Part shown: piece by piece, positions 4,415 through 63,100 of the stretch
Layout: each line of letters opens with the position of its first letter
Position numbering within the stretch: the stretch's first letter is position 1
Source: Candidatus Falkowbacteria bacterium
GTDB taxonomy: Bacteria > Patescibacteriota > Patescibacteriia > Patescibacteriales > UBA12465
Assembly: GCA_012800315.1 (NCBI GenBank)
Contig: JAAZJO010000010.1
Location: forward strand, 45,942 to 109,941
Reading direction: 5' to 3'
DNA length: 64,000 nucleotides
Notes under the pieces: generated by a model
What the model saw: the letters and a program-made list of their open reading frames with translations, nothing else
What the model was told of the DNA's origin: nothing
Databases searched by the model: none
Made by a program: the position numbers and the translations under genes

Positions 4415-4495
4415 AACTTTTCGCTTTATCCGAGAAGTGGGCTAAGCTGTCCCTCATCCCAGAAAGAGCATCATTAAATATATTAAATAAGACGC

Positions 4496-4971: not shown

Positions 4972-4973
4972 TT

Positions 4974-5048
4974 TGGTGCCTCGGGTCAGAATTGAACTGA
5001 CGACACAAGGATTTTCAGTCCTTTGCTCTACCACTGAGCTACCGAGGC
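4974..5048 (-). tRNA. tRNA-Phe (anticodon GAA)
   Basis: The reverse complement begins gcctcggtagctcagtggtagagc with an anticodon loop ctGAAaa and the T-arm gttcaattctgac. Confidence 0.8.
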
Positions 5049-5090
5049 CCAAGAATCATAATAGATTTATGGGTTTTTTGATAAAAACTG

Positions 5091-5163
5091 TTGCGGGAGT
5101 TGGACTCGAACCAACGACCTCTAGGTTATGGGCCTAGCGAGCTGCCAACTGCTCTATCCCGCG
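5091..5163 (-). tRNA. Initiator tRNA-fMet (anticodon CAT), no encoded CCA
   Basis: The reverse complement is cgcgggatagagcagttggcagctcgctaggcccataacctagaggtcgttggttcgagtccaactcccgcaa. It shows a C1:A72 mismatch and a CGCGGG start like bacterial initiator tRNA. The anticodon loop is ccCATaa. Confidence 0.65.
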
Positions 5164-5191
5164 ATACATTTTCTAATTTAATTTATTAGAG

Positions 5192-5265
5192 TGGGCAATG
5201 GAGGAGTTGAACCTCCGACCTCAACATTATCAGTGTTGCGCTCTAACCAACTGAGCTAATTGCCC
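5192..5265 (-). tRNA. tRNA-Ile (anticodon GAT), no encoded CCA
   Basis: The reverse complement is gggcaattagctcagttggttagagcgcaacactgataatgttgaggtcggaggttcaactcctccattgccca with the anticodon loop ctGATaa. Confidence 0.75.
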
Positions 5266-5325
5266 GTTAATTTTACGAATAAGAATATAACAAATAATAA
5301 ATAAAAAAGCAAGGATTGCCTTTAT

Positions 5326-6294: not shown

Positions 6295-6327
6295 AAATTG
6301 AGTGTTTAGCGTGCACAGTTTTTAATT

Positions 6328-8422: not shown

Positions 8423-8445
8423 CTTAATTAAATAGTTTAATAATA

Positions 8446-13817: not shown

Positions 13818-13821
13818 ATAG

Positions 13822-13894
13822 TGGACCCTACAGGACTCGAACCTGCCACCCCCTGCTTGCAAAGCAGGTGCTCTACCAGATGAGCTAAGGGCCC
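13822..13894 (-). tRNA. tRNA-Ala (anticodon TGC) with a G3:U70 identity pair
   Basis: The reverse complement is gggcccttagctcatctggtagagcacctgctttgcaagcagggggtggcaggttcgagtcctgtagggtcca. The anticodon loop is ttTGCaa and there is a G3:T70 wobble in the acceptor stem. Confidence 0.85.
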
Positions 13895-34694: not shown

Positions 34695-36176
34695 ATGATT
34701 AAACCGTTTTGGACAAAATGGTCGTTTTTATTCAAGCTCCGTTTTATTTTTGGGGTTATTTTATTGATTTTTTTATTGCTTTTTCTTTATTTAAAAATAG
34801 TCCCTTTTGGCCAGATTAGTTATAGTCGTGATTATAGTTCTGCTTGGCGTTCGAGCAAGGGTTTTATTTCTGGCTTTACGCCGGCAGAAAGAGTTGATTT
34901 AGAAACTAGTGAAGTGCCGGCTATTATCGGCGATCCAGTTTATTTTTCTGTTTTTACACCCCGAACTTTTGATCAAGCTAAGATGACGATTGTTTATCGT
35001 GATAATTTAACTATTGATTTGCCAATTATTGAGGCTGGTGTTTTGGTAGATAATATTGTCTGGCGTTATGATTTAAAACCAGTTGATAATAAAGCGCTTG
35101 ATTATTTAATGTTGCGTTGGGATAAATTGGAAGAGAATGGGCTTTTATTTTTACAGAAAGAAAAGAATTATTCTAGTTTGGCTGATTGGGAAAAGGACTT
35201 AGCGAAAGGAAAAATAAAAGATTGTTCTAATGTTTCAACTAATTGCTTAGCTGTTTATAATTATACTCCACCCTATAAATATCAGATTGCCAATTATCAA
35301 CCGCTTTTGCCATTAACTATTGACCAACCTTTGCGCGGGGCGCATCAATTTTATCTTTATTTAAAAGATGAGCCTTTGCATTTAGATTTTTCTTTTATTG
35401 ATCAAAATTTAGATTTAAAACCAGCACCAATTAAGATAATTTTATCATCTGAAAACGGAATAATAGACACGCAAATAATTGATGATCCTAATCTTAATCC
35501 AGGCAGTGGGCAGATGGAAGAGAAAAAAGTGACGATTGATAAACGTAATTTGTCAGCGGGTATTTATAAGGTTGAGGTTAAGATTACCGATGACATGATT
35601 ATTAAAAAGATAAGTAGTTCAATTGGTCGTCTATCCTTTATTCATAAAATTTGGCCGGTTTCTGGACAAGGTAATTTGAAAGTTTATACTGATTCTAATT
35701 ATTTACAGGTTAAAGCTTTAAGTCCAGCTAGTTTGCAGACGATTAGTTTTGGGGGAAATAAATTTTCTTTAACAGAAGCTTATCGGCAATTTGATTTTTA
35801 TTCTGAGGACGGTGGCTTGATTAAAGAAATAAAAATTGCTCAAGATGATTTAATTTTGGAAAATAATGGAGTTTTTGCTTTGTCGCCGAATGCACTTATT
35901 AATCCTTCTTTAATGAAAGTAGACCGATTTTTTTCTGTGAAGATGCCAGTTAAATATATTGTAGCTGAATATCAAAAACCAAAAGAGGTGAATGGTTTTA
36001 AAGTGGCTACTGTTGAATTTGATTTGAAAAATGCTTATAGAGAGAAGGGAAAATATAACTTTATGATTGCGGTACCTGGCTTAAAAGCGGATGATAAATT
36101 AAATGATAATTTAGAGATTTATAAAATTAATATAGAATTTGAAGGCAGAACACTATGGCAAAAAATTTGGCAATAA
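34695..36176 (+). CDS. Hypothetical N-terminally membrane-anchored protein
   Basis: 493 aa. The N-terminal TM helix is ILLIFLLLFLYLKIV. The rest is soluble with no motifs I recognise. Confidence 0.3.
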   Translation: MIKPFWTKWSFLFKLRFIFGVILLIFLLLFLYLKIVPFGQISYSRDYSSAWRSSKGFISGFTPAERVDLETSEVPAIIGDPVYFSVFTPRTFDQAKMTIVYRDNLTIDLPIIEAGVLVDNIVWRYDLKPVDNKALDYLMLRWDKLEENGLLFLQKEKNYSSLADWEKDLAKGKIKDCSNVSTNCLAVYNYTPPYKYQIANYQPLLPLTIDQPLRGAHQFYLYLKDEPLHLDFSFIDQNLDLKPAPIKIILSSENGIIDTQIIDDPNLNPGSGQMEEKKVTIDKRNLSAGIYKVEVKITDDMIIKKISSSIGRLSFIHKIWPVSGQGNLKVYTDSNYLQVKALSPASLQTISFGGNKFSLTEAYRQFDFYSEDGGLIKEIKIAQDDLILENNGVFALSPNALINPSLMKVDRFFSVKMPVKYIVAEYQKPKEVNGFKVATVEFDLKNAYREKGKYNFMIAVPGLKADDKLNDNLEIYKINIEFEGRTLWQKIWQ

Positions 36177-36332: not shown

Positions 36333-38318
36333 ATGTCTTTAAATAATTTTTTTAATCCAGCAGCTGTGGCAGTGGTCGGAGCCTCTAACCAGAAAACAAA
36401 AATTGGGCGCCAGATTCTTGATAATTTAATTAAGGGCGGCTTTAAAGGAAAGATCTTTCCGATTAATTTAAAAGAAAAACAAATCGCTGGTCTAAAGGTT
36501 TATGCTAGCTTAGAAAACCTGCCTTTAAAAGAATGGCCGACTCTTTTAGTAGTTATTGCTATTCCTATGCCTTTTGTTTTAGCCGAGATAAAAAAATGCG
36601 TTAACTTAGGAATTAAAAATATTATTATCATTACAGCTGGTTTCAAAGAAGTTGGCGGAGAAGGTGAAATAGCTGAAGCGGAAATTGCTAAGTTAGCTGC
36701 TAAGCACCAATTAAATATTCTTGGTCCGAATTGTTTAGGATTAATTAATACTTGGGGTAAGTTGAATGCCAGCTTTAGTTCGGCAGATACAAGCACCGGC
36801 AATATTGCTTTTTTATCTCAGTCAGGCGCAATTGGCTCAGCTGCGCTTGATTGGTTAAAAGTTAAAGATTTTAATTTTGCTTATTTTATTAGTTTAGGCA
36901 ATAAGGTGGCTATTGATGAAAATCAAGTGATTGAATATCTAGCCTCTGATTCACGAATTGATTTAATTGTTGTTTATTTGGAAGAAATTAAAGATGGTCA
37001 GAAGTTTATGAATTTAGTTTCTCGTTTAATTAAGTATAAGCCGGTAGCTATTTTAAAAGCCGGTCAAAGTATAGCTGGTGGACAACTAGCCTTGTCACAT
37101 ACTGGCTCTTTAGCTGGTTCTAGTGCGGTGATTAAGGCGGGTGTTAAAAGAGCGGGGGCTATTTGGTTAGAAAATTTAGGAGAATTATTTAATTTATTAC
37201 TTATTTTTCAAAAGAAAAATTGCTGTGATAATCAGAGTCAGGAGCTGTCTTTAATTACTAATGCGGGTGGTTTAGCAGTTTTAACGGTTGATGAAATTGA
37301 GCGACAAAATATTTCTTTTGGTTATAGTTGGGATTTACTAGGTGATGCTAATGGAGAAAAATATGAAGCAGGATTAAAAAAAGCGCTAGCGGATAAAAAA
37401 GTTCATAATCTTTTAGTTTTATTAACACCGCAAACTTCAACTGAGCCACTTAAAACAGCAGAAGCAGTGATTAAAATAGCTAAAAAATATCCAACTAAAT
37501 TAGTGATGACTAGCTTTGTTGGTGGCCAAGCAGTAGCTGAGGCGCGTGATCTTTTAGAAAAAAATAGCATCCCAACTTTTGAATATCCAGAAGAGGCAGT
37601 GCGCAGTTTTAAAAAATTAGTTGATTATAAAAAAAGTGCTAAGACTATTAAGTCATACAAATTGCTAAAAACAACAATGAAAAAACCAATTACTGAAACT
37701 GATTATTTAAAATCAATGGCTCTTTTGCGTGAATATGATATTCCGACAATTAAAACGGTTAAATATGAGGCAACTCAGGTAAAATCATATCAGTATCCAG
37801 TGGTTTTAAAAATTGTGGGACCTGATTTTTTACATAAAACTGATAAGCAGGCAGTGGTCACTAACATTAAAGATGAGCAGACTCTAAAAAAGATGGCAGC
37901 TCTTTTAGAGAAACGGCATAAAAAGATCTTAGCTAATAAACAAAATTATTTAATTGTTCAAAAACAGGCGGATCATTTTCAAGAAATAATTATGGGCTTT
38001 AAGCGTGATGCCTCTTTTGGACCGGTGATGATGATCGGTTTGGGTGGTATTTATGCTGAAGTTTTTAAGGAAGTAAAATTGGCGATGAGTGATTTAGATT
38101 TACAGACTGCTTTAGAAAAAATTGCTGAACTAAAAATCTACCCAATTTTAAATGGGGCGCGCGGGCAAAAGAAATACGATCTTAAGAGTTTAGCTGAAGC
38201 CTTTGTTAATTTATCTCGCTTAGCTAACGAGCATCCGGAAATTAAGGAATTTGATCTTAATCCTTTATTTGTTTTTGAAAAGGGGGTGTTGGCAGCTGAT
38301 GTTAGAATTATTATTTGA
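36333..38318 (+). CDS. Acetyl-CoA synthetase (ADP-forming, fused alpha-beta; NDP-forming acyl-CoA synthetase family)
   Basis: CoA-binding N-terminus AVAVVGASNQKTKIGRQILDNL, a succinyl-CoA-synthetase-like flavodoxin domain, and a C-terminal ATP-grasp. The ORF is 661 aa. Confidence 0.8.
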   Translation: MSLNNFFNPAAVAVVGASNQKTKIGRQILDNLIKGGFKGKIFPINLKEKQIAGLKVYASLENLPLKEWPTLLVVIAIPMPFVLAEIKKCVNLGIKNIIIITAGFKEVGGEGEIAEAEIAKLAAKHQLNILGPNCLGLINTWGKLNASFSSADTSTGNIAFLSQSGAIGSAALDWLKVKDFNFAYFISLGNKVAIDENQVIEYLASDSRIDLIVVYLEEIKDGQKFMNLVSRLIKYKPVAILKAGQSIAGGQLALSHTGSLAGSSAVIKAGVKRAGAIWLENLGELFNLLLIFQKKNCCDNQSQELSLITNAGGLAVLTVDEIERQNISFGYSWDLLGDANGEKYEAGLKKALADKKVHNLLVLLTPQTSTEPLKTAEAVIKIAKKYPTKLVMTSFVGGQAVAEARDLLEKNSIPTFEYPEEAVRSFKKLVDYKKSAKTIKSYKLLKTTMKKPITETDYLKSMALLREYDIPTIKTVKYEATQVKSYQYPVVLKIVGPDFLHKTDKQAVVTNIKDEQTLKKMAALLEKRHKKILANKQNYLIVQKQADHFQEIIMGFKRDASFGPVMMIGLGGIYAEVFKEVKLAMSDLDLQTALEKIAELKIYPILNGARGQKKYDLKSLAEAFVNLSRLANEHPEIKEFDLNPLFVFEKGVLAADVRIII

Positions 38319-46127: not shown

Positions 46128-46527
46128 GTTTATTATTTTTACTGACGGAGGAGCGCGGGGCAATCCAGGACCAGCTGGGATTGGCGCGGTTATTTATAAT
46201 GAGGACAAAGTTTTAGTAGCAGAGATTTCTGAATATTTAGGCGAGACTACTAATAATCAAGCTGAATATAAAGCTTTGATTGCTGCTTTAAAAAAAGTAA
46301 TCACTTTAGGAGCAATTGAAGTGGAGTGCTATCTTGATAGTGAGTTAGTGGTTAAACAATTAAATCGGGAATATAAAATAAAGAACAAAGAGCTGGCGCC
46401 TTTGTTCTTAGAGATACATAATTTAAGTTTAAATTTTAAAAAGATTTCTTTTATCCATATTCCGCGTGAGCGGAATAAGGAGGCAGATAAATTAGCTAAT
46501 GAGGCAATGGACAGAGGCGCTAAATAA
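46120..46527 (+). CDS. rnhA: Ribonuclease HI
   Basis: IIFTDGGARGNPGPAGIGAVI and TNNQAEYKALIAAL are RNase H catalytic motifs. It overlaps the recJ stop by 8 nt. Confidence 0.8.
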   Translation: MSKFIIFTDGGARGNPGPAGIGAVIYNEDKVLVAEISEYLGETTNNQAEYKALIAALKKVITLGAIEVECYLDSELVVKQLNREYKIKNKELAPLFLEIHNLSLNFKKISFIHIPRERNKEADKLANEAMDRGAK

Positions 46528-46538
46528 GCGCCTTTTTA
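46515..46538. terminator. Bidirectional terminator between convergent rnhA and the minus-strand por-pilin operon
   Basis: Hairpin aggcgc-taaataa-gcgcct followed by ttttt on plus and an A/T run on minus. Confidence 0.45.
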
Positions 46539-46540
46539 TA

Positions 46541-47734
46541 TTATGAATTTGGACAAGGATTATTCATCGGTTCATTATATTGATAATGCCACCATTCTCC
46601 ACAATATCTAACCCAGCCGGCCGCCTGCATTATTTCTTTTAATTTTTCTACATCAGCATCAGAATATTCAGCATTAGCTTTTCCGCCAATGTGATTACAA
46701 GATTCCGTGCCTTTAATACAAAGATCAATTGCTTTACCACTGCGGTGACCACCGCAACTTCCCGGTTTAGCTACCCATTTTTGGGCTTCTAGTTCGTTGC
46801 CGTATGTTCTTAGGGCGGCTTCCCATAATTCTTGTTGGTGTTGAGCTGTTCTAAAGGCGCTAACGACATGTAGATTAACACCTCGTTTTTGAGCTTCGGA
46901 GATAGCTAAAGAGAGACCATCAATTCCTTCAGGGGCGAGAAAAGGTGAGGTAGCGCTCGTTGAAACTAAATCAGAGATAGGTTGAATTTCTTTATCTTTA
47001 GCACAGGTACCGACAGCATTTTCAGTACTATCACTACCATTTTTTATAGGGGTGATAACTATTTTTTGAACTGAGGAAACATTAACTCCTTTTAGATTAA
47101 CTAAATCAGGATTGACGATTGTTAAAATTGTGTAGGAAACTAGCAGAATGATTAAGCCACTAATACTACCGATTATTAATTCCTTCGCTTTAGTAATTTT
47201 TGAGGCATCGCCAGCTGAAATTAGCCAGAGCAAACCACCAGCCATTAGCATGATGGCGGCGAGAATACCGACAATGCCCAGAGCATAATTATATAAACCA
47301 GCAATATATTGCCCAATCCAAGGAATATTACATTTTTCACCCACGGGACAAGTTACAGGAGCTAATTTATTTAGCCCAGGTATTTGCACCTGAAAATCAG
47401 GGATAGTAAAGCGGGCAGCTACTGGTTCTTGTACTGGTTCTTGGGTTTCACAACAACAGACAGCCTCATCTAATCCTTTAGTTTTTGGTTTTGGCGTGGC
47501 GGAGCAGAAGTCATCGCTAAATTGAGTCATTTGCTTCTCTTCACATGTCCCAGATTTAATTATTACTTTACTTATTATGGTGTTTTGCTGATAAGAAGTT
47601 GTCATTGCTTTATTTATCACTGACCAAGTACAATTTCCGCCAGCGCTGACTGGATTTGTGGTAGATAAAAAGAGGCTCAAAAAAAGAAGAGGAAATAAAA
47701 TCAAGAGTATAGATTTTTTTATCTTTAAATTCAT
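46541..47734 (-). CDS. Secreted Cys-rich protein with T4SS-pilin-like two-helix hairpin fused to C-terminal M15 (VanY-like D-Ala-D-Ala carboxypeptidase) domain
   Basis: Signal peptide and CCCE motif. Hairpin is GIVGILAAIMLMAGGLLWLISAGDASKITKAKELIIGSISGLIILLVSYTILTIVNP. M15 motifs are VVSAFRTAQHQ, HRSGKAIDL and EWWHY. The ATG overlaps the porB stop as ATGA. Confidence 0.6.
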   Translation of the reverse strand: MNLKIKKSILLILFPLLFLSLFLSTTNPVSAGGNCTWSVINKAMTTSYQQNTIISKVIIKSGTCEEKQMTQFSDDFCSATPKPKTKGLDEAVCCCETQEPVQEPVAARFTIPDFQVQIPGLNKLAPVTCPVGEKCNIPWIGQYIAGLYNYALGIVGILAAIMLMAGGLLWLISAGDASKITKAKELIIGSISGLIILLVSYTILTIVNPDLVNLKGVNVSSVQKIVITPIKNGSDSTENAVGTCAKDKEIQPISDLVSTSATSPFLAPEGIDGLSLAISEAQKRGVNLHVVSAFRTAQHQQELWEAALRTYGNELEAQKWVAKPGSCGGHRSGKAIDLCIKGTESCNHIGGKANAEYSDADVEKLKEIMQAAGWVRYCGEWWHYQYNEPMNNPCPNS

Positions 47735-48603
47735 ATTTTATATTTTTTTATATTTTCGGCGGCTAATTTTTGGATAATAGAAATATCAGCTTCTTTTAGA
47801 TGTTTAAAACGTCCTTGTTTTTTTAAATATTCTTCAACTGCTTTAGCTTGGAAATTAGAATTAATACTGGAAGCACTTAATTGTCCATTAATATATTCTA
47901 ATAACGGATAAAGACCAGTTTGGACGGCTAATTTGCCCAGCATTGCTGCTTCGTTATTATTTATTTTCCAACCGGGAATGCAGGGGCAGAGTATTTGTAG
48001 ATAACTTGGGCCATCTGTTTCTAAAGCCTTTTTTACTTTATTAGTAATATCATCTGGAAAGCCGGCAGAGGATTGAGCAACATATTTTAAATTATGTGCT
48101 AGAGCAATAGCTAGCATATCTTTTTTTCTTTGAGTTGAGCCGCTGGAGACGGTGCCTGAGGGGGAAGTAGAGGTACTGGCGCCGTAGGGAGTAGCACCCG
48201 AGGCCTGTATACCAGTATTTGAATAAGCTTCGGTATCATAACAGATATATAAAACATTTTCTCCGCGCTCCCAGAGACCACTAATTAAGCCAAAGCCAAT
48301 ATCAAAAGTGCCACCGTCGCCCCCTTGAACAACTACTTTAGTTTTTTTATCGCCTTTTTTATTTAGAGCGGCCTTAATGCCTGAAGCTACAGCGGCAGCA
48401 TTTTCAAACAAAGAATGAATCCAGGGTAAACCCCAAGCACTTTGCGGATAAGCAGTTGTGGTTACTTCTAAGCAACCAGTGGCGTTAGCGATAATAACAT
48501 TTTTATGTAAGCCGCGCATTACTGCTTGTGCAGCTGATAATTGACCGCAGCCAGCGCAACCGTTGTGGCCAGGGGAGAGAAATTTAGTATTTTTATTATT
48601 CAT
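47731..48603 (-). CDS. porB: 2-oxoacid (pyruvate):ferredoxin oxidoreductase beta subunit (TPP-binding)
   Basis: Cys cluster GHNGCAGCGQL. TPP-binding motif QGGDGGTFDIGFG. I took the start at the internal Met MNNKNTKF (48603) since the longer ORF overlaps the upstream gene. Confidence 0.85.
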   Translation of the reverse strand: MNNKNTKFLSPGHNGCAGCGQLSAAQAVMRGLHKNVIIANATGCLEVTTTAYPQSAWGLPWIHSLFENAAAVASGIKAALNKKGDKKTKVVVQGGDGGTFDIGFGLISGLWERGENVLYICYDTEAYSNTGIQASGATPYGASTSTSPSGTVSSGSTQRKKDMLAIALAHNLKYVAQSSAGFPDDITNKVKKALETDGPSYLQILCPCIPGWKINNNEAAMLGKLAVQTGLYPLLEYINGQLSASSINSNFQAKAVEEYLKKQGRFKHLKEADISIIQKLAAENIKKYKI

Positions 48604-49621
48604 AATCACAAACGTTATCTGTAAAAGCTTTACGTCGACAATTCCCATGATTTTGGTTTGAACCACAGGTTGGGTGTTGTTCTGTAGAAGCGCATTTATA
48701 ATCATCTTCTTTGGGGTCTCCACAGGCTGCTCCAGGCGGTAGACAAGGTTGACAAGATCCATTTTGACAATATCCAAAAGCAGTTAATGGAACTGTTGTT
48801 TGTCCAGAGGTTGATAATTTTGTGTAAGTACAAGCCTCTTTATCTTTTTTTCCTTCACAACCACCAGAAAATAAATCTGATGAATTTGGAATATACGGTG
48901 CGGTAGTAGTATTTGTTTTTTCGCATTTATATTGGTCTGCAGACGAGACTCTAATATACCCTAAATCTAATGATCCACAAGGATAATTTGAGTTAATAGT
49001 GACTCCTGAGGCCTCTAAGTCTTTGGCCCATTTGCAATCACTTAATTCTCCGGTTCCTAAGTTTGATTTGCAACAACAATCATCATAGTGATTATTTACT
49101 TCTTTAGCTACTAATTTATTTACAGCGATAGGTTGTAAATTAACCAGTTTAGGATTAATAGTGTTTAATATTGTCCAGGAGATAAGTAAAATAATTAAAC
49201 CAACGATGCTGCCAGAAATTAAATTTTTTGCTTTAGAAATTTTACCTGAATCACCACCAGAAGTTAACCAGATAAGACCAGCACCCATTAATATAATAGT
49301 GGCTAAAATTCCGACAATAGCTAGTCCATAATTATAAAAAGATCCAATATATCTTGGTAATAAATCAGTATAGATTTTTCCATCTTTTAACGAGTCAACT
49401 GGAATCGGAGTTCCTTTTTGAAATTCAGAGTCAGGAATAGTAACCTGCGGCGTAAAGTTTAGGGTATCTTCCAGATCTACTTTGGCGGCCATAGCTGATA
49501 GAGGAACTGATAAAATAAATATTGCGCCTATAACTTGTAGCCCCAAAAATAGTCTGATTAAAATTTTATTAAGATTAGATTTAGGTTTAAACATATTATT
49601 TGCGTAACTATATTTTACCAA
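48596..49621 (-). CDS. Secreted T4SS-pilin-like hairpin protein with Cys-rich C-terminal domain, inserted between porA and porB
   Basis: Signal peptide LIRLFLGLQVIGAIFILSVPLSAMA. Hairpin GLAIVGILATIILMGAGLIWLTSGGDSGKISKAKNLISGSIVGLIILLISWTILNTINP is a paralog of the one in 46541-47734. CCCK motif is followed by about 25 Cys in 170 aa. Confidence 0.5.
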   Translation of the reverse strand: MVKYSYANNMFKPKSNLNKILIRLFLGLQVIGAIFILSVPLSAMAAKVDLEDTLNFTPQVTIPDSEFQKGTPIPVDSLKDGKIYTDLLPRYIGSFYNYGLAIVGILATIILMGAGLIWLTSGGDSGKISKAKNLISGSIVGLIILLISWTILNTINPKLVNLQPIAVNKLVAKEVNNHYDDCCCKSNLGTGELSDCKWAKDLEASGVTINSNYPCGSLDLGYIRVSSADQYKCEKTNTTTAPYIPNSSDLFSGGCEGKKDKEACTYTKLSTSGQTTVPLTAFGYCQNGSCQPCLPPGAACGDPKEDDYKCASTEQHPTCGSNQNHGNCRRKAFTDNVCDYE

Positions 49622-50759
49622 TAAATTTTATTTTTTGACCATTCTTTTTTTTCACATCAGTTACTATTTCTCTAATCATTTTTTGCGTGATATCACGTCC
49701 GCCTAAGCCAACAATATAATTTTTAATATTTAATTGATTATTTGGTAAAGAAGCTTGGATGTCAGAAAACAAGGGACCGGCTTGCCCTAAACTAATTGCT
49801 TTTTCAATGACAGCAATATTTTTGGCCGTTAATAAAATTTGGCTAACTTCTTTTGCAGGAAATGGGCGATAAGTTTTTATTTTCAAAAGGCCAGTTCTCT
49901 GATCATTTTTTAGAGTTTCGCGAATGGTACCAATAACTGAGCCCATAGCTACTAAAATAGTTTCTGGTTTTTTAGGACCAGAGTATTCAACTAAGCCGCT
50001 ATCTTTATTTTTTCTCCCTAAGAGATGCATTAAATCTTTATATTCTTTTTTAATGATAGTTAAACTAGCTGTTAAATCATGGTGTAAGTTTTCCCGGGTT
50101 TCAAAATAATCAGCAGGGGTAGCAAAAATACCAAAAGTCATTGGTTTTTTTGGATTTAAAAACTGATCCGCTTTAGGGGCGTAGTTTGGGAGAAATTTTT
50201 TTATTATTTTTGAGGAAGGGATAATAACCGGCTCAAAAGCATGAGTTAAAATAAAACCATCAACATTAACCATCACTGGCAGGCGTAATTGCTCAGCAAT
50301 TTTGTAAGCTAAAATGTGAAGATCAACAGCTTCTTGATTAGAATCAGCAAAGAAATGAATCCAGCCAGCATCACGAATAGTCATAACATCGCTATGATCA
50401 TTCCAAATATTTATAGGAGCAGAAATAGCGCGATTAGCGCAAGTCATAACTACGGGCAATCTTAGGCCAGCGATGTTAAAAATAACCTCAGTCATTAATA
50501 GCAAACCTTGTGAACTAGTAGCGCTATAACTACGCACACCGGTAGCGCTAGCGCCTAAAATAATTGAGGCAGCCGCAAATTCGCTTTCTGCTCTTAGATA
50601 TTCATAATCAGCCTCGCCATCCGCTTTTAGTTTGGCTAGTTTTTCAACAATGTGAGTTTGGGGGGTGATTGGGTAAGCGGAAATGACTGCTGGTTTAATA
50701 TTTTTAATCACAGCCGCAATAGCTTGAGAACCTTCTAAGAGTTGTTTTTTATTTTCCAT
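49608..50759 (-). CDS. porA: 2-oxoacid (pyruvate):ferredoxin oxidoreductase alpha subunit
   Basis: 383 aa. GSQAIAAVIKNIKPAVISAYPITPQT is the PorA N-terminus. Transketolase-like Pyr domain. Confidence 0.85.
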   Translation of the reverse strand: MENKKQLLEGSQAIAAVIKNIKPAVISAYPITPQTHIVEKLAKLKADGEADYEYLRAESEFAAASIILGASATGVRSYSATSSQGLLLMTEVIFNIAGLRLPVVMTCANRAISAPINIWNDHSDVMTIRDAGWIHFFADSNQEAVDLHILAYKIAEQLRLPVMVNVDGFILTHAFEPVIIPSSKIIKKFLPNYAPKADQFLNPKKPMTFGIFATPADYFETRENLHHDLTASLTIIKKEYKDLMHLLGRKNKDSGLVEYSGPKKPETILVAMGSVIGTIRETLKNDQRTGLLKIKTYRPFPAKEVSQILLTAKNIAVIEKAISLGQAGPLFSDIQASLPNNQLNIKNYIVGLGGRDITQKMIREIVTDVKKKNGQKIKFIGKI

Positions 50760-50764
50760 ATTAC

Positions 50765-51040
50765 TTAAAAATCATTTTCCATTTTTATAGCTTTAACTGG
50801 GCATTCGTGTGCACATAGACCACAGCCTTTGCAATAGTCATAATTTATTTTTGCTTTTATTTTTTCCGTTTTAATCTGTTTTTTCATTTCAATACAGCCT
50901 TCTGGACAAAGCTTGGCACATAATGAGCAGCCGACACAGGTATTTAAATTAATTACTGGCTTGACTGTTCGCCAAGAGCCAGTTTTATTAGCTAGGCTAG
51001 AGTTTGCTTGAGCGGAAAGATTAGTGATTGGCGCTTTCAT
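50765..51040 (-). CDS. porD: 2-oxoacid:ferredoxin oxidoreductase delta subunit (2x[4Fe-4S] ferredoxin)
   Basis: Two CxxCxxCxxxCP motifs: CVGCSLCAKLCPEGC and CKGCGLCAHECPVKA. Confidence 0.85.
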   Translation of the reverse strand: MKAPITNLSAQANSSLANKTGSWRTVKPVINLNTCVGCSLCAKLCPEGCIEMKKQIKTEKIKAKINYDYCKGCGLCAHECPVKAIKMENDF

Positions 51041-51581
51041 AATTTTTAGTGATGGCTAAAATATTTTTTTTAATTATTTCTTGTCCCTTTTCTTTAAATT
51101 TTTCAGTAATGGCTTTTTTTAATGATTCTAAGCTAACTAGACCGGTATATTTAGCAAAGGCGCCAAGAATAGTGGTATTAACTATATTTTTCCCGAATAT
51201 TTCCATGGCAATTTCGGTGGCGGCGGTGAAATAAAGATATTTAAATTTTTTCTTTAATTCCGGCCATTTATTTTCTGGAGCATTAATAATTATAATTGTT
51301 TCTGGAGTGCGGCCAGCAAAAACATCAACACTTTCTAATAGTGTAGCATCTTGAATAATTAAAATGCTCGGCTGATAAATTTGTTCACGAGTTGTGATTG
51401 CTTGATGACTGAGGCGGACGAATGATTGGATTGGAGCACCAGTTCTTTCTACACCAAAATTAGGAAAGGCCTGGGCTTCATAGCCTTCGTAAAAAGCAGC
51501 TAGGGCGATAAGCTCAGTGGCTGTAACCACTCCTTGCCCACCGCGTCCATGAATTCTTATTTGTTCCAGTTTATTTTTCAT
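51021..51581 (-). CDS. porG: 2-oxoacid:ferredoxin oxidoreductase gamma subunit
   Basis: IRIHGRGGQGVVTATELIALAAFYEGYEAQAFPNFGVERTGAP is the gamma-subunit signature. Confidence 0.85.
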   Translation of the reverse strand: MKNKLEQIRIHGRGGQGVVTATELIALAAFYEGYEAQAFPNFGVERTGAPIQSFVRLSHQAITTREQIYQPSILIIQDATLLESVDVFAGRTPETIIIINAPENKWPELKKKFKYLYFTAATEIAMEIFGKNIVNTTILGAFAKYTGLVSLESLKKAITEKFKEKGQEIIKKNILAITKNYESANH

Positions 51582-51588
51582 TTTTAGT

Positions 51589-52365
51589 TTAGTTATTTTC
51601 GGTGGTTGTGCTTAGTGATAGTTGCTGTAAAATACCGTCAAACAATTCTCTAAACTTTTCAGTTGGATAATAACCGGTAAGAGGATAATTATTAACAAAC
51701 CAAGTTGGTGTGCCTTGTATTTGGAGAGCTTGACCATCATCATAGTCTTTTTTAATTTCGCTGATATAGGTTCGGTTGTTAAAACAAGCTTCAAATTTCG
51801 CCATATCTAAAACATTGAGAGAGTTAGCCCAAGAAATAATATCAGCTTTTATGGTCGTAGGCTCTTTTAAATAATCTTGATTAAGGAATAGAGAATCAAA
51901 AGCTTCCCAATACTGCCCTTGTTCACCAGCACAACGAGCAGCTAAAGAGAGATCTATTGAAGTGTCATGGATTGGATAATCGCGAACAACGTATCTGACG
52001 GTTTGCTTATATTCTTCAGTTAATTTTCTCATTTCTTCAGAGGCTTGTTTGCAGAAAGGGCAGGCGAAATCATTAAATTCAACGATAGTGATTTTAGGAT
52101 CAGGGGATCCGGTAGCATAGGGACTTCCTCCGTTAATTAAATTTAAATAGATTTGACCTTGATTTTCTAGAGCGTTTAAAGATTCTCCAGCTTGGATACG
52201 CTTTACTTCCTTAATAACATAGATAGTTGAGGCGATGATGGCAGCTAAAACTAAACTTAGGATAAGTAAAAGAATTATCCCCCACCATTTTTTATACCAA
52301 GGGACAAAAAGTTGGCTGTGTCGCGCCTTCATTTCAACATATTTTATTCTGTCGTCTAAATTCAT
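51589..52365 (-). CDS. Membrane-anchored DsbA-like thioredoxin-fold thiol:disulfide oxidoreductase
   Basis: N-terminal TM helix WWGIILLLILSLVLAAIIASTIYVI. Active site is FNDFACPFCKQ (CPFC). It sits 7 nt upstream of porG on the same strand. Confidence 0.65.
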   Translation of the reverse strand: MNLDDRIKYVEMKARHSQLFVPWYKKWWGIILLLILSLVLAAIIASTIYVIKEVKRIQAGESLNALENQGQIYLNLINGGSPYATGSPDPKITIVEFNDFACPFCKQASEEMRKLTEEYKQTVRYVVRDYPIHDTSIDLSLAARCAGEQGQYWEAFDSLFLNQDYLKEPTTIKADIISWANSLNVLDMAKFEACFNNRTYISEIKKDYDDGQALQIQGTPTWFVNNYPLTGYYPTEKFRELFDGILQQLSLSTTTENN

Positions 52366-52417
52366 ATAAATTGAAAAATAAGCTCGTTTAAAGTATAATT
52401 TTATTATAACATAATTT

Positions 52418-53185
52418 ATGAAATTAATCTCTTGGAATGTTAATGGAATTCGGGCGGCGGCTAAGCATGGCTTGGCTCTTTTTTTGCAGGCGGAAAAACC
52501 AGATATTCTTTGTGTTCAAGAAGTAAAAATATCTGATTCCGCTCGTCTTGAGACGAAGCTTGATTTTTCAAATTATACAGAGTATTGGCACAGTGCTAAG
52601 AGACCGGGTTATAGCGGTACAGCTATTTTTGTGAAAGCAGGCTTTCCGGGTGTTTTGCAGGTCAAAAATGGTATTGGGATTGCTAAATTTGATGAAGAGG
52701 GGCGAGTACAGACTTTAGAATTAAAAAAATATTATCTAGTTAATGTTTATTTTCCAAATTCTAATGCTGAATTAACGCGCTTGCCGTATAAATTAGAGTT
52801 TAATAAGGCTTTATTAAAATATCTTAAAAAATTAGAGAAAAATAAACCAGTAATTGTGGCTGGAGATTATAATGTTGCTCATGAACCGATTGATTTAGCT
52901 CGCCCCAAAGAGAACGAAGGAAAGGCTGGCTTTACTTCTGAGGAAAGAGCCTGGTTTTCCTCCTTTTTACAAGCTGGTTTTATTGATACTTTTCGTTATC
53001 TGAACGGTGATCGGGTGCAATATTCTTGGTGGAGTTTTAGAACAGCGGCCAGAACCCGAAATATTGGTTGGCGGATTGATTATTTTTGTGTTTCAAAAAA
53101 ATTGAAGAAAAACTTGAAAAAAGCTTATATTTTAGATAAAATTAAAGGCTCAGATCATGCTCCAGTTGGTCTGGAAATAGACTAA
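52418..53185 (+). CDS. xth: Exodeoxyribonuclease III (AP endonuclease)
   Basis: MKLISWNVNGIRAA, DILCVQE and GDYNVAHEPIDL are EEP-family motifs. C-terminal SDHAPV. Confidence 0.85.
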   Translation: MKLISWNVNGIRAAAKHGLALFLQAEKPDILCVQEVKISDSARLETKLDFSNYTEYWHSAKRPGYSGTAIFVKAGFPGVLQVKNGIGIAKFDEEGRVQTLELKKYYLVNVYFPNSNAELTRLPYKLEFNKALLKYLKKLEKNKPVIVAGDYNVAHEPIDLARPKENEGKAGFTSEERAWFSSFLQAGFIDTFRYLNGDRVQYSWWSFRTAARTRNIGWRIDYFCVSKKLKKNLKKAYILDKIKGSDHAPVGLEID

Positions 53186-56561: not shown

Positions 56562-57158
56562 ATGGCTTCAGCTAGAAATCCTTTAGAGAGAAGAAAAAAT
56601 AAGCAAATTGCCGCTAATTCGCCTCGTAATAAAAAAATAGTGGTGTTATTTTTTAGTTTTTTTGCTATTTTAATACTTATTTTTTCCGGTTGGAGATTTT
56701 ATAAGTTTTTAAATGAACCTTTTAGAGTTGAGGGAGAGGGAAGAAATGAGGTAGATATTAATGCTTATTTAGATCCTCTTGATTCGGATAGTGATGGTTT
56801 GTCTGATTATGATGAAATTAATATTTATCATACTTCTCCGTATTTACCCGATTCGGATAGTGATGGTATTTCTGACTATGATGAAATTATGGCTGGTACT
56901 GATCCGAATTGTCCGACTGGTAAAGTTTGTAATACAGCTGAGACGGTTATTACTCCTAAAGATAATTTAGGCACTGATAATAATATTAATGAAGAAAATA
57001 ATCTTTTAACTAGTGGTGAAGTTACTCCAGATTTTTTAAGACAGATATTAATTCAAAGTGGTTCTGATCCAGAAATAGTGGAGCAAATTAGTGATGAAGA
57101 CTTAATGGCCGCTTATCAAGAAGCAGTTAATAGTCAAGTTGAAGTGATTAGTGAATAA
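56562..57158 (+). CDS. Small type-II membrane protein with two thrombospondin-type-3-like Ca-binding repeats
   Basis: TM helix IVVLFFSFFAILILIFSGW. Two DxDxDGxxDxDE loops: DSDSDGLSDYDE and DSDSDGISDYDE. Confidence 0.4.
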   Translation: MASARNPLERRKNKQIAANSPRNKKIVVLFFSFFAILILIFSGWRFYKFLNEPFRVEGEGRNEVDINAYLDPLDSDSDGLSDYDEINIYHTSPYLPDSDSDGISDYDEIMAGTDPNCPTGKVCNTAETVITPKDNLGTDNNINEENNLLTSGEVTPDFLRQILIQSGSDPEIVEQISDEDLMAAYQEAVNSQVEVISE

Positions 57159-57181: not shown

Positions 57182-60100
57182 ATGAAATTTTCTATTAATC
57201 CAATAAAGAAGAATATTAGGAAAACAAGTAAAAAGACTTTAGTTTTTTCACTTGTCTTAGTAATGTTTTTTTCTTTGTTATTAATGCCATTAAAGACTGT
57301 CCAGGCGCAATTAGTGGTGGCGGAGCCAGTGGTAGAGGCACAAACTGGCATTAAAATAGCCATGGATAAAGCGGAGTCAGCTTATAATAAAGCCAAGGCA
57401 ACTTTAAGTAAATTACTTTTAAAAGCGGGAGCCACCTCTTTTCAGCAAGTTGTAAGAGCAGCTTTAAATAAAATAGCTTATGATACGGCAACCTATTTAG
57501 GTTCTGGAGACAGGGGGCAAAAACCTTTATTTATCACTGAGGATTTAGGTTCTTATTTAGCTAATGTTGGTGATGCAGCCGCTGGTCAATTTATTGAATC
57601 TTTTGTTACTAGATTAAGTGTAGGGATTAGTGCTGAGTGCCAAAAGACATATCAGGCTTGCGAGGAAAATTGTCAAAATTATTATGAAATTGGTTCAAAT
57701 GAGGGAATAACTTGTATTAAGGAGTGCAGAGAGAAAGCCTATTTATGTGGTCGGGGTGAGGTAGGTGTTGGCACGAGTAGTAAAAGCGGTTTGAGTGGTG
57801 CGGGAGCTGCTTCAGCAACCCATCTAGGCGCTTTAAATATATGCCAACCATCTTCTTTAGAAGCGAAAGTTAAGATTGGTTTAGGTTTAGTTGAGTATCA
57901 AAGCCCAATGATGAATGCTAATTGTACCGCTTCTAAAATGATTAGTAATTGGGATGATGCCGCAACTAAAATGGCTGATTGGAAAGATCCAAATTTCCTA
58001 GACAACATTAAAGGTATATTTAATCCCACTTCTCACGATTTAGGAATATACATGACTGCTAGAAGTGATTTAGCTTCAGCTAAAGCAGGCGCTAGTACTT
58101 TATCTTTAAATGATTTTTTAGTTAATAAAGGTTGGTTAAGTAAAAGAAATGCGGCTGGTGAAATGGTTGGTACTCCTGGTGATGCTGAAAGAAAAGCACA
58201 AACAACTGAGGCAGCCGCTAAAGAGTCTTTACTACGTACTACCGGCGATATTGTGGTTGACGCGGCCAATGTTTTTGTTAATCAATTAGCGATTACCAAG
58301 TTTAATGATTTAATGTCTAATTTAGGCAAGAAGGTCACTGATGATTCTAGCGGTAGCAGCCGACGACTTTCAGGAGATTTAACTAATCCTGAATCTGATT
58401 CAACTACTTCTTATAGCGCGACTGGATTAAAAGAGTCTTTGTATTCAATTATTGAGCCAGATTTTGGGGTTAAAGCAGATTATGATATTTTAGCTAGTTT
58501 AACAGTTTGTTTTGATAAAAAAAATCCCGGTCCAACCGAGTGTGTTATTGATAGTAAGTTTAGTCAAGCTATTAGTGAAAATAAAACAGTGATTGAAGCA
58601 GTTAGAGAGGGTTATATAAACAGTGATTGGCAGTTAACAGAAAAAACGATAGAAGGCGCTTATTCTTTACGCAATGTTTCTATTTTGAGAAAATATCGCA
58701 TTTTACCAATTGGTTGGGAGGAAGCGATTAAACGAGCTTATGCTGACTCAGCTAAGGTTAAGAGAATTACGGTGATGGATATGATTTCTTGTTTTGATGA
58801 GTCTGATGAATATCAAAAGTTTAGTTCTAACTTTAATGTGGCTGATCAAGAGTGGTGTCGTGGCTTAGTTGATCCTAACTGGGTTTTGAAAGCACCACTT
58901 AATTATTGTAGCAAGCAAGGATCGGGAGCACATATTATTAGCAAAATAGTGTCTCCTTCTTATGGCGTTAAAGGTGCGGCTGATTATGTAGCTAGTGTTT
59001 TTAGTGTTAGTCGTGATGAGGAATATTGTGCTGATGAAAAAACTTGTATTAAGGAAAAGGCTGATGGTAGTTGTGAAGCCTATGGATATTGTAATGAGGA
59101 AAAGAGAACTTGGAATTTTTCAGCTGATAGTTGTGATCCGATTTATAATACTTGTCAAAATTTCACTAATGCGGCCACCGGTCAAAATGTTTCTTATTTA
59201 AAAAATACTTTAGATTACGCTAATTGTGATACAAATAGCGTTGGTTGTCGTCAATATTCTCTTAGTGGTTCTTACGATGTAGCTACTGGTGTTGTTTCTT
59301 GGGGCAAGAATAAAACAATTTATTTTAATAATAATTTAGAAATTTGTGATAAAAATAGTGAAGGTTGCACAGAGTTGATTAGAGTTAAGCCGACTTGGGG
59401 AGTTAATTTAATAATGAATTCAAACTTTAAAGATGACACCATCAACAGGCCACCAAAAAATTGGTACTTTGATTTTAATTCTTCCTTAAATACTTTTCAG
59501 GTTGTTAATTTAGCCGAAGAGCCAATTGGTGGAGTTGGTCGGGCCTTAAAAATCTCTGGTGAAAGAAAAGGCAGTTCTCCTGAACATATTTCAGTTAAAG
59601 TTGTTTCCAATGCCCAAAAATCTCTTTTGCCTGATAATTTTCAATTAATTCCTAACCAGGCCTACACTCTCAGTGTTGATGTTTATATTCCTGAGGGAAC
59701 AGCGGGAACAGCTAGAATTTATTTGGGCGAATTATCAGATGGTTTTGTGGCCTCAACCTCTAAGACTGGAGCTTGGCAGCACCTATCAGTGACCCGAACG
59801 GCTGCCGCTAATTATACTGAGCCGGTCTTCTATATTGAGAATCAAAATTTCGGCACTAAGAATGTAATGTATCTTAGAAATCCTAAATTTGAAGTTAGTA
59901 ATTACGAAACTAACTTTAATGCTTATGGCAGTGCTTATAAAGTTTATGAAAAATTAATTCCGCCATATTTAGAAAGTGTTTGTTATAATAATATTTCTAG
60001 TGCCACTAAAGACTATACCTTAAAAACTAACGCTCCGGCTGTTTGTTATGATTTCGCTCGTCGCTGTAATCGTGATGAAGTTGGTTGCGAGAAGTTTGTG

Positions 60101-63100
60101 GGGGTAAAAAATGGCATCACTGTTTCTGCCCAAGTAACCGCCTCTGATTATTGCTGGGGAGATTGCTTAGATTATGATGTTTATGTTTCTAAAGGAAGTT
60201 ATTTTAATTCTCCAGAAGCAGAAAATATTATTCCTACTAAAGCCACTGCTTGTCGGGCTGAAGTGGTTGGTTGTAATGAATTTACTAACCTTGATGCTTT
60301 AAATGTTGGTGGAGAGAATAAAGAATATTATTCTGCCATGAAGCGATGCGTTAAACCGTCGCAGGGGACTTGTGGTACTTTTTATAGTTGGGAGGGCACA
60401 AAGAATGGTTATCAGTTAAGATCTTATGTTTTAGAAAGAGAAATAAATAAGAATCAACCAAAGTTAACTTTTGGAGAAGTAAATGATTCGGCTACTTGTG
60501 ATCAAAATATTTATCATAAGAAAGTTGGCGAAGTAGGCTATAACCCAGATTGTTTAGAGTTTATTAATTCGGCTGGCGATGTTTTTTATGCTTTGCTTTC
60601 AGCGACAATAACTTGTTCCGAGGATTGTCATACCTATCGGATGACTGAAAAAAATATTGATAGAAGCATTACTTCAAGAGATGCTTGTGTTGAATCGGGT
60701 GAAAATGGCAGCACTTATTGGGACGCTGTGGCTGGTGCCTGCTATTCCTGTTTAAATGGTGGTCAATGGGATAATGCAACTAAATCTTGTTTGTATCAAG
60801 CTATTCCTGGAGAGGGCAAGATCTGTACGGCTGCCGAAAGTGGTTGTCGTGAATATAATGGTAATAGTGGTAATAATGTGAAACTGCTTACTTCGTTTGA
60901 TTTTGAAAACGGAAGCCAGGGTTGGCTATCAGCTAACGGCACTCTTAACACTGTAGCCGTGGCTAATGAAAAGGACGGTCATTCAATTTATTATGAAAAT
61001 AGTAAAAATTATTTTGTTAGGACTAAGGTTAGTCAGTTAGTTAAAGAAGGGAAGTCTTATGCGATTCGCTTTATTGCTAAGGCTGATGAGACCACTAATT
61101 TAAATATTTTCTTTACCGATAATGCGGATAATAATCCACAGAGAGCTAGTTTTTCTGCCGGCAAAATAACTCTAAAAGGTGGTGGCGAGTGGCACATCTA
61201 CCAAGCTAATTTAGCTAATTTAGACCATGCTATTTCTGAAAATGAAACCTTGACAATCATGGCTGATAATAATTTTTATTTTGATGACTTTGCTTTAACA
61301 GAAATAACTAATCGTCATTATTTAGTAAAGAATTCTAGCGTTGTACCGGATATTTGTTTTTATGATATTAATAGTGTTTATCGGGGAGCGGAATATAATT
61401 TAGGTTGTACTCAATATAAAGATCGTGATAATTTAACTCATAATTTGCGCAAGTTTTCTAAGCTTTGCTCAAGTTCAGCTGTGGGTTGTGAACAAATGAT
61501 CGCGACTCAAAATTATTCTTCATACGCTAGTGGAATTTGGGGTGATACTAATAATAATGGAGTTTGTGATGTAAATGAAAAAGACTGTGTTCAAGTCGGT
61601 GGCGATGAAATTATTTATACAATTTTTGATTCTAGCAAACAATGTAATTCAGCTGATTTAGGTTGTAGTCGTTTAGGACAGGGAATAGCCGCTGGCTCTG
61701 ATTGGTCAGATGTCTTTAGAAAAAATAATCCAAATCTATACGCTAGCGCTTTGTGTGGTCCAGCTCAAGTTGGTTGTGAGAAATGGATAGCTACCGATGG
61801 CTCGGAAAGTTATTTTAAGAATCCAGGAAATGAGGTTTGTCAATATCGTAGTAGTCATGATTTAAATAATCCAGTAAAAGCTTGGTATAAAATTCCAGTT
61901 AAGCGTTGTGATTCTAATGGAAATGGTGTTATAGACACTGAAACAGAAAAGGCGGGAGCAGTTTGCTCAACCGATAGTATGTGTTCAGCTGGTTCTTGTA
62001 TTATTGATAATAATGATTATCCTTGTGATTATTCATATTTTAAAACTTTTGGTATCGGTGGTGCGGGCAATCAAGTTCCAGTACCAAGCAAGCAAGTTGC
62101 TTTGTGTCAAGCAACTGCTTCTGGCTGTACAGAATATATTGACCCAGTAAGTAGTTTTTCACCAGAACTTTTAGATAATCCGAATGATAATATTCAGCAA
62201 GTTGCCTTAAGCCCAAATAAATTATATATCCTCTCTGTTGACAAGGGGGATAAGGATAATCAAAGTGATACGATTCTGAAATTTGAGGCTATTATTAAAC
62301 CTTTATTAGCAGATAATAATTTAGGGATTTCTACGACGACTATTACAATAGATAAAAATACTAGTGACCGGATTATGTTTGCTTCTTTAGCTAATTCCTC
62401 AGTTACTATTTCTGGCGGCGAGGTAGGGAAAAAGATTGAGTTAAAAGAGGCAATTATTAATTATCAACTCAAAAATAGTATAGATGTAACTAGTTGCAAC
62501 GGAGTGGTTAATCCAGGGGTTGGCTGTATTCTTTTTAATGAAAGAACGGTAGCTGGCGCAACCGGTTTAGCAGCGAATAAGTTTGATGCTGTTAATAGTG
62601 TTAGTGGACAAGCGCCACAGCTTTGTGATTCAGATTCAGATAATTGCACCGCTAATCAGCTAGTTAAAGTAAAATTAGACAGAGTTTGCTCTAAGTGGCT
62701 TGATTGTGTAGCTTATTTTAATGATCCTAATACCAATGAACGAGTCTGTTTAGCTTTAGGACAATGTACTCGGCTTGATGATAAGAATGAATGTGCTAAT
62801 TTTGAGGATGTTCCAAGTGGCAATACCTCTTTTGCTTCAGCGAGAAATAAAGATAAGACTGGTTATTATCTACTTAATAATTATCATTTAAGCGAGATGA
62901 AAGAAGTTGGTCTTAAAGTGCCTGGTGCTAATTATGATTTTGAAAATGGAGTGGCTCCCCTATGTTCTCAAACAACTGGCGAAGCTTGTTCTTTGGAAAC
63001 TTTGAATAGTTTAATTATTAGCGAGCCAGAAAAAGCGCCAACTGATTATCCTGCTCAGGGCACTGGCTATCTAAGAGTGCCCCCTTCTACAATTATTTCA

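Follow-up and report, generated by a model that had tools for sequence, protein, structure and literature searches.

The DNA examined here, called the window throughout, is a 64-kb stretch of Candidatus Falkowbacteria contig JAAZJO010000010.1. Its minus strand carries, from position 46541 to 52365, a run of seven genes in which the four subunits of a 2-oxoacid:ferredoxin oxidoreductase (POR) are interleaved with three predicted extracytoplasmic proteins: a DsbA-like thiol-disulfide oxidoreductase and two cysteine-rich proteins that contain a membrane hairpin of the Pfam family PF18895. One hairpin gene lies between porA and porB (the slot gene), and the other follows porB (the post-porB gene). 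A preliminary description, made from the sequence alone, had proposed these seven gene identities, and each of them was borne out by a Pfam match. Listed from the upstream end of the cluster, the features are the following:

52366-52417, no strand assigned: divergent intergenic region of 52 nt between dsbA and an exonuclease III-like gene (open reading frame [ORF] map)
51589-52365, minus strand: first gene, DsbA-like thiol-disulfide oxidoreductase, 258 aa (Pfam Thioredoxin_4/DSBA)
51021-51581, minus strand: porG, gamma subunit, 186 aa (Pfam POR; TIGR02175)
50765-51040, minus strand: porD, delta subunit, 91 aa (Pfam Fer4 families; TIGR02179)
49608-50759, minus strand: porA, alpha subunit, 383 aa (Pfam POR_N and PFOR_II)
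48596-49594, minus strand: slot gene in the porA/porB interval, cysteine-rich hairpin protein, 332 aa (PF18895)
47731-48603, minus strand: porB, beta subunit (thiamine pyrophosphate, [4Fe-4S]), 290 aa (Pfam TPP_enzyme_C)
46541-47734, minus strand: post-porB gene, fusion of a PF18895 hairpin and an M15 peptidase, 397 aa (VanY, Peptidase_M15, PF18895)
46513-46535, no strand assigned: GC-rich hairpin in the interval between a convergent RNase H gene and the last gene of the operon (terminator scan)

Two of the gene starts were corrected. The slot gene begins at ATG 49594 (332 aa), replacing a 341-aa ORF with a TTG start, and porB begins at ATG 48603 (290 aa) rather than at the TTG of an over-extended ORF; both starts match the alignment of homologues and were also called independently on a public contig of identical sequence (L101). 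The junctions then run exactly as first claimed: a 7-nt gap between dsbA and porG, a 20-nt overlap of porG and porD, a 5-nt gap between porD and porA, a 13-nt gap between porA and the slot gene, an 8-nt overlap of the slot gene's end with the porB start, and an ATGA overlap between porB and the post-porB gene. Tight packing as such is ordinary for bacteria, and the evidence against chance is conservation, to which we return below. The operon promoter presumably lies in or flanking 52366-52417, and the divergent junction between the ExoIII gene and dsbA recurs in relatives. Promoter-like matches numbered 24, against 19.8 +/- 4.4 expected from shuffles, and were therefore not enriched; in this AT-rich DNA, such scans are uninformative. 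The terminator scan yielded no minus-strand terminator-like site at the internal junctions. At the downstream end, where a bidirectional terminator had been proposed, half of the claim stood. The scan listed the hairpin at 46513-46535 on the plus strand only, as 9 pairs followed by TTATATTATG, whereas in the direction of the operon, TCTGTCC and not a T-run comes after the stem; the hairpin is thus a canonical terminator of the convergent RNase H gene and not of the operon.

The four por products are nearest to the NCBIfam pyruvate synthase PorA/B/C/D models, and ketoisovalerate models score next. The porG product matched Pfam POR (139 bits) and TIGR02175 PorC_KorC (192 bits; cut-off, 81), and the porD product matched TIGR02179 PorD_KorD (100 bits; cut-off, 60) and carries two CxxCxxCxxxCP motifs, CVGCSLCAKLCP and CKGCGLCAHECP. 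For the porA product, the Pfam matches were POR_N (240 bits) and PFOR_II (83 bits), and the top NCBIfam match was PorA_Arch, whose 443 bits are under the equivalog cut-off of 550. The porB product matched Pfam TPP_enzyme_C (73 bits), with PorB PRK11865 as its top NCBIfam match (358 bits, under the cut-off of 405); it has a GGDGG sequence (GDG motif) and cysteines in CAGC, ATGC, and LCPC, and the PorB proteins of relatives consistently have 5 cysteines. Since the gamma and delta subfamily models exceed their cut-offs and the equivalog models stay below theirs, pyruvate is the likely, not the proven, substrate. An ORF of the ADP-forming acetyl-CoA synthetase type (36333-38318, plus strand; CoA_binding, Succ_CoA_lig, and ATP-grasp_5 domains) lies outside the operon, 8 kb from the por genes, and judging from these domains its product would be the ATP-yielding partner of POR.

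The first gene encodes a protein with matches to Pfam Thioredoxin_4 (92 bits) and DSBA (64 bits). Its single transmembrane (TM) helix, an N-terminal anchor at about residues 28 to 51, has the greater positive charge on its N side. The protein further contains the CPFC active site noted in the preliminary description, a GTPT cis-Pro loop, and two further cysteines; a second cysteine pair is typical of exported DsbAs. CxxC and GTP[TSA] are conserved in relatives of the protein, and its best solved relatives are DsbA (4pwp/4pwo), 7unn, and BdbD (3eu3), which we take to be membrane-anchored oxidoreductases of monoderm bacteria. MdbA of Actinomyces and Corynebacterium and BdbD of Bacillus fold pilins and the ComGC pseudopilin. 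The protein encoded here resembles them in its N-terminal TM anchor, CxxC, cis-Pro loop, and extra cysteine pair and in being co-located with cysteine-rich surface proteins. It differs from them in that its substrates are putative, in that three related lineages have CxxS in place of CxxC, and in that no re-oxidizing partner of the DsbB/VKOR/BdbC type turned up among the window ORFs scanned. The disulfide-regulated PFOR of Desulfovibrio offers an analogy for a cytoplasmic DsbA-like protein that regulates POR. We set this idea aside because an exported domain is what the TM anchor, the distribution of charge, the extra cysteine pair, and the nearest relatives all indicate.

Both hairpin proteins start with a plausible Sec signal peptide (judged by eye), and both exceed the Pfam cut-off for PF18895 (26.6 bits), the slot protein with 30.9 bits and the post-porB protein with 29.3 bits. 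The family match proposed for them therefore held, and it extends to all 33 of the 33 slot-protein homologues. The two proteins are paralogues that share 48% identity over a 130-aa module consisting of an extracellular motif (FTPQVxIP or FTIPDFQVxIP), a first TM helix, the loop SGGDxxKIxxAK, and a second TM helix. With a signal peptide ahead of a two-TM hairpin, both ends of the mature proteins should be outside. In AlphaFold2 (AF2) models, the hairpin helices, also seen as hydropathy segments, span residues 78 to 111 and 116 to 146 of the slot protein, on either side of the conserved loop SGGDSGKISKAK, and residues 139 to 172 and 177 to 207 of the post-porB protein; they are modelled with a confidence (pLDDT) of 80 to 90, which is about 80 to 85 in the slot protein.

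In the slot protein, the signal peptide is likely cleaved after AMA, the FTPQVxIP motif is conserved, and the C-terminal domain is a cysteine-rich, fast-evolving stretch of 170 aa (pLDDT below 50 in the AF2 model). Across 32 homologues, identity was 70% in the hairpin versus 23% in this domain, where cysteines make up 41% of the identical positions. The domain is a near-orphan, with 8 matches at E<=1e-3 among 1.84 billion representative proteins; some of the 8 are cysteine-rich repeats in giant proteins, and no function could be learned from them. The slot protein has 16 cysteines and the post-porB protein 14, which together (30) agree with the more than 25 first reported. The CCC motif reported for both proteins is also present, at residues 173 to 175 of the slot protein (49070-49078) and residues 93 to 95 of the post-porB protein (47450-47458), in each case close to the membrane hairpin. 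CC is near-invariant in the slot-protein homologues, as is CCC in 37 homologues of the VanY fusion, and inter-subunit cross-linking and metal binding are possible roles for the motif.

The post-porB protein combines its signal peptide and hairpin with a cysteine-rich beta domain (residues 35 to 100) and an M15B zinc peptidase (about residues 250 to 390; VanY, 47.1 bits [cut-off, 25]; Peptidase_M15, 31.5 bits). Its AF2 model has a mean pLDDT of 83, rising above 90 in the M15 domain, which matches LdcB/VanY/VanXYc structures (4mph, E=4e-13 by sequence and E=8e-8 by fold with Foldseek). Residues H330, D337, E380, and H383, which form the H-x6-D...ExxH pattern of zinc ligands and catalytic Glu, are invariant in 37 homologues, and the peptidase is therefore probably active. 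Genes for Mur ligases, MurJ, glutamate racemase, and an M23/LysM peptidase lie in the window, so the organism makes peptidoglycan. In fold and in invariant zinc and catalytic residues, the C-terminal domain is like the LdcB/VanY (M15B) carboxypeptidases, and as a wall hydrolase encoded beside a pilin-like gene, the protein is like VirB1. Unlike either, it is fused to a cysteine-rich domain and a PF18895 anchor, and its catalytic domain is swapped between lineages (NlpC/P60, amidase, 3D, lysozyme-like). The N-terminal domain and hairpin are kept in these exchanges. VanY/M15 occurs in the window and in lineages L091, L092, and L102; NlpC-P60/Amidase_5 occurs in L002 and L007; weak glucosaminidase, SLT_3, or 3D matches occur in L001/L005, L002b, L013, and L021; and the remaining lineages have no recognizable catalytic domain. 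Among 164 database homologues, the same scaffold is also joined to Amidase_2, Peptidase_C39_2, and M15_4, and every recognizable domain found on it is a peptidoglycan hydrolase. A hairpin that is conserved while its ectodomains diverge or are swapped behaves as an anchor module. We therefore treat the PF18895 hairpin here as a putative conserved membrane anchor for ectodomains, for which a pilus role is possible.

To follow the cluster across genomes, we used a porA alignment to search a single genome from each GTDB species, retained the 80 best loci, and labelled their ORFs by phmmer with the window proteins and with a hidden Markov model (HMM) built from the slot-protein homologues. Twenty-three of these loci were patescibacterial (porA identity, 49 to 73%), under record titles of Falkowbacteria, Parcubacteria, or Patescibacteria and including several titled "uncultured Gammaproteobacteria" that have the same flanks; the other 57 came from Omnitrophota, Planctomycetota, Zixibacteria, Methanomicrobia, and other groups. 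The gene for the DsbA-like protein stands directly before porG in all 21 patescibacterial loci whose upstream sequence is available, and of the 22 whose sequence continues past porA, 20 have a PF18895 gene next. The two exceptions (L028 and L031) read dsbA-porGDAB and then uvrA. Outside the Patescibacteria, the por genes were contiguous in 57/57 loci, and neither dsbA nor a PF18895 gene was present. The claim that porGDAB is contiguous elsewhere was accurate, and an envelope gene wedged between porA and porB is as unusual as had been supposed (0/57). The subunit domains, the G-D-A-B order, and the cofactor motifs of the cluster are those of canonical porGDAB/porCDAB operons of anaerobic bacteria and archaea, with the closest non-patescibacterial relatives in Omnitrophota, Planctomycetota, Zixibacteria, and Methanomicrobia (porA identity, 45 to 53%). 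It departs from the usual contiguous form in that the gene of a 332-aa secreted protein splits porA from porB, a second such gene follows porB, and a dsbA-like gene heads the operon, none of which occurs in any of the 57 loci.

The complete order dsbA-porG-porD-porA-PF18895-porB-PF18895 was also found on the contigs of six slot-protein homologues (P0006, P0007, P0012, P0013, P0022, and P0026), and three homologues of the VanY fusion (36 to 52% identity) are encoded directly 3' of porB in the same layout. Reached in this way from the hairpin proteins, 8 further genome or metagenome sites have the seven-gene order. Synteny in more than 30 loci led us to reject a one-off insertion. A mobile-element origin was likewise rejected, as a repeat search of 46300-52600 revealed no mobile-element or insertion scars (just short AT-rich chance matches) and the GC content equals that of the surroundings. 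In most lineages there is one slot gene; L012 has two, and L032 has a 762-aa version with 40 cysteines. The porA stop and the slot start overlap (ATGA or 8 nt) in at least 11 lineages, and in most others they are 15 nt or less apart. In a porA tree (neighbor joining, without support values), the patescibacterial sequences formed one group, with L028 and L031 as sisters nested inside it. The simplest reading, and a likely one, is a single secondary loss of the hairpin genes. In a tree of the hairpin module (likewise without support values), slot and post-porB copies formed two clades, each mirroring the porA tree, and they are therefore two old paralogues, each inherited in place; tandem duplications in L012, L002, and L005 are recent. 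The architecture is stable across the whole lineage of Falkowbacteria and relatives, in more than 20 species. We found no description of the arrangement in the searchable literature (Falkowbacteria and POR, Candidate Phyla Radiation and DsbA, Patescibacteria pilins), an absence that is no proof of novelty, and its components are all of known kinds.

Some individual records stood out. In the most divergent locus (L061, DAONSQ010000027.1; porA identity, 49%), porG is followed by porA with no room for porD, and the locus keeps dsbA upstream and a hairpin gene 3' of porA. On CAYYLI010000025.1 (L027), ExoIII-dsbA-porG-porD is inverted with respect to porA and the hairpin gene, so that por would span two strands; the inversion is either real or a misassembly of this 9.6-kb contig. 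Loci L011 to L013, L017 to L019, L022, and L027 are titled "uncultured Gammaproteobacteria bacterium" and have the same gene order as the Falkowbacteria records, with 60 to 73% PorA identity; these titles are probably placeholders or wrong labels.

Taken together, we consider it probable that the locus is an ancient, vertically inherited composite operon in which cytoplasmic POR genes are interleaved with three genes for extracytoplasmic proteins and are co-expressed with them. From the junctions, a single transcript would start upstream of dsbA, and ribosomes would cross the overlapping or near-abutting stop and start codons. PorG, PorD, PorA, and PorB, whose domains and motifs are those described above, would assemble as a normal cytoplasmic POR and, with the ADP-forming acetyl-CoA synthetase, would yield acetyl-CoA, reduced ferredoxin, and ATP. 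The DsbA-like enzyme would be anchored by its one TM helix with the CPFC domain outside. In the topology suggested by hydropathy and the models, the PF18895 proteins would lose their signal peptides and sit in the membrane as two-helix hairpins with both ends outside, so that the slot protein would display its fast-evolving 16-Cys domain on the surface and the post-porB protein would display its cysteine-rich beta domain together with a peptidase of LdcB/VanY-type fold that would trim peptidoglycan stem peptides. The DsbA-like enzyme probably forms disulfides in the hairpin proteins and in other nearby cysteine-rich surface proteins. The hairpin would serve as a membrane-anchor module, with or without pilin polymerization, and the link to POR would be one of shared expression, with the surface proteins riding on a core catabolic operon.

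The modules can be separated. Two lineages have dsbA and por without hairpin genes (L028 and L031), and one has dsbA and a hairpin gene without por (L010). The tie to POR is therefore best explained as shared expression. Of the link to fermentative metabolism proposed earlier, the co-location and a probable co-translation stand, whereas a functional tie is unsupported.

Several observations weigh against a co-expressed composite operon of this kind. Hitchhiking by itself does not account for a slot gene located between porA and porB. The flanks are conserved too, with KsgA-LeuRS-ExoIII on one side and RNaseH-RecJ-LepA on the other, so some of the conservation may reflect general synteny, not selection acting on the arrangement. 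In a few deeper lineages, porA and the hairpin gene are 34 to 460 nt apart, which leaves room for separate control, and the cluster itself contains promoter-like hexamers at chance frequency; one of them, TGGTCA-18-TAAAAT, ends 18 nt ahead of the slot ATG. Where hairpin genes are missing (two lineages), dsbA is still found with por, and in three lineages (L007, L018, and L032), its active site is CPYS or CVYS (CxxS), with hairpin proteins that are still cysteine rich (14 to 40 Cys). The pairing of the DsbA-like enzyme with these substrates is thus not strict, and the CxxS variants suggest that these enzymes act like isomerases or through mixed disulfides, or that they depend on a second oxidase.

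The alternative that fares best shares the expression argument with the composite operon and adds a true pilin and a role in a type IV secretion system (T4SS). On this account, the three proteins would be parts of a T4SS-like apparatus (a VirB2-like pilin, a VirB1-like hydrolase, and a folding catalyst), for which the por operon gives constitutive, high-copy expression while the other apparatus genes lie elsewhere in the genome. Support comes from the PF18895 scores of both proteins and from the company that the family keeps in a relative. In L010 (ERZ27249449 k141_1565377, 1324-9698), PrgI, a TraC-like protein, a VirB4/TraG-type ATPase, and three unannotated genes make up a T4SS-like cluster, and behind it come a DsbA-like gene of its own and the gene of a 565-aa PF18895 protein (P0030, a distant homologue); por is absent there. 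The L010 contig (809 kb) is almost as long as the one with the por-linked cluster of P0012 (809,082 bp), and both loci probably occur in the same kind of genome. In Patescibacteria, PF18895 has been used as a VirB2-like marker, pilin genes lie near virB4 in 1,135 of 1,948 assemblies and many thus lie away from it, and other wall hydrolases may replace VirB1 (10.1101/2025.01.22.634366). The hairpin proteins of the window share with the VirB2-like pilins and pilin arrays of that study the PF18895 match, the signal peptide with a two-TM hairpin, and the occurrence as highly variable paralogues (10.1101/2025.01.22.634366). Both also have weak matches to NCBIfam Mbov_0395, a "pilin-like conjugal transfer protein" of a Mycoplasma integrative and conjugative element, with 23 and 21 bits, under the cut-off of 40.

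Evidence beyond the family level speaks against a classical pilin. The hairpin proteins had no Pfam match to PF04956 (TrbC/VirB2) at E<=0.1, and hhalign of the hairpin profile against an alignment of six plasmid VirB2/TrbC proteins gave a probability of 4.8%. The helices align in register, which is not evidence of homology, and the comparison did not establish homology to classical VirB2. No solved pilin was matched by sequence, with either the full or the hairpin-only profile, or by fold, where the matches were non-specific. Pilins of the VirB2/TraA type are some 70 to 120 aa long when mature. The proteins here, at 332 and 397 aa and with large ectodomains at both ends, are 3 to 4 times the size of VirB2-type pilins, and these ectodomains are cysteine rich or enzymatic. 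Unlike patescibacterial T4SS pilin genes, the genes lie in a metabolic operon, and the 64-kb window contains no T4SS gene (virB4, prgI, or others) and no third PF18895 gene. The pilin identity first assigned to the hairpin proteins thus holds as membership in a Pfam family and finds no support from the VirB2 comparisons or the fold searches. We regard a T4SS apparatus as an unlikely explanation of the locus.

A frozen accident without co-expression, in which the cluster is a neutral relic of synteny and the envelope genes use internal promoters of their own, seems improbable to us. It would account for the conservation of flanking gene order over the same span of species, for the promoter-like matches inside the cluster, and for the larger spacers of deeper lineages, and the L027 inversion of dsbA-porG-porD would show that the unit can be split. 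On the other hand, the overlaps at the porA/slot, slot/porB, and porB/post-porB junctions mean that in most lineages, the window included, neither a promoter nor a terminator could fit there, and the scans gave neither enriched promoter-like sites nor an internal terminator on the operon's strand.

Physical or biochemical coupling, in which the slot protein would tether POR through its cytoplasmic loop or link pyruvate oxidation to extracytoplasmic thiol redox in quinone-less organisms, is very improbable. In its favor, the slot gene is flanked by two subunit genes, and many lineages show translational coupling of it to porA; the short loop SGGDxxKIxxAK is among the most conserved parts; and dsbA is linked to por in every checkable lineage, hairpin-less ones included. 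Against it, the loop motif recurs in the post-porB paralogue and in the L010 protein, which has no link to por, and is thus a family feature rather than a POR-specific one; two lineages keep POR without any hairpin gene; homologous contiguous PORs in 57 loci need no such subunit; and standard redox potentials would make it strongly uphill for electrons to pass from DsbA-type thiols to ferredoxin. There is very little chance that the slot protein is a genuine POR partner whose loop docks the enzyme at the membrane, or that a coupled operon forces POR to assemble there.

Elsewhere in the window, a giant secreted ORF (57182-64000, plus strand) runs past the right end; its product, of at least 2,272 aa, has a signal peptide, at least 81 cysteines, and no Pfam match. 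A small TSP3-repeat protein (56562-57158) is encoded just before it, and relatives have orthologues of 2,723 to 2,929 aa at the same place. This giant protein, too, is a likely substrate of the DsbA-like enzyme encoded nearby. A 493-aa ORF (34695-36176, plus strand) with no Pfam match at E<=1e-5 lies between the ORF at 30645-34577 and the acetyl-CoA synthetase-type gene. On the minus strand, there are a tRNA cluster (Pro-Phe-Met-Ile, 4898-5265) and a lone tRNA-Ala (13821-13894); no Rfam family other than tRNAs reached threshold in the window.

Surface pilin-like proteins are thought to be central to the way in which Patescibacteria attach to, and live off, other cells, and almost nothing is known of when such proteins are produced. 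In one whole lineage, the genes of two pilin-like proteins and of a disulfide catalyst are a fixed part of the operon for the main energy-yielding enzyme. This placement predicts that the hairpin proteins and the catalyst are constitutive and abundant components of the surface, and the locus offers a defined, conserved target for metatranscriptomic, proteomic, and structural tests. The use of the PF18895 hairpin as a general anchor for interchangeable wall-hydrolase and cysteine-rich domains would caution against calling every PF18895 match a pilus subunit. Physical coupling, if real, would tie central metabolism to the envelope in a way that is new in kind; if the slot protein were a true POR partner, these quinone-less, host-dependent bacteria would have their core energy metabolism physically joined to a surface layer that depends on disulfides, and the operon would be a functional unit rather than a convenience of co-expression. 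Co-expression, the most probable explanation, is not mechanistically radical, and the architecture provides a handle on patescibacterial surface biology.

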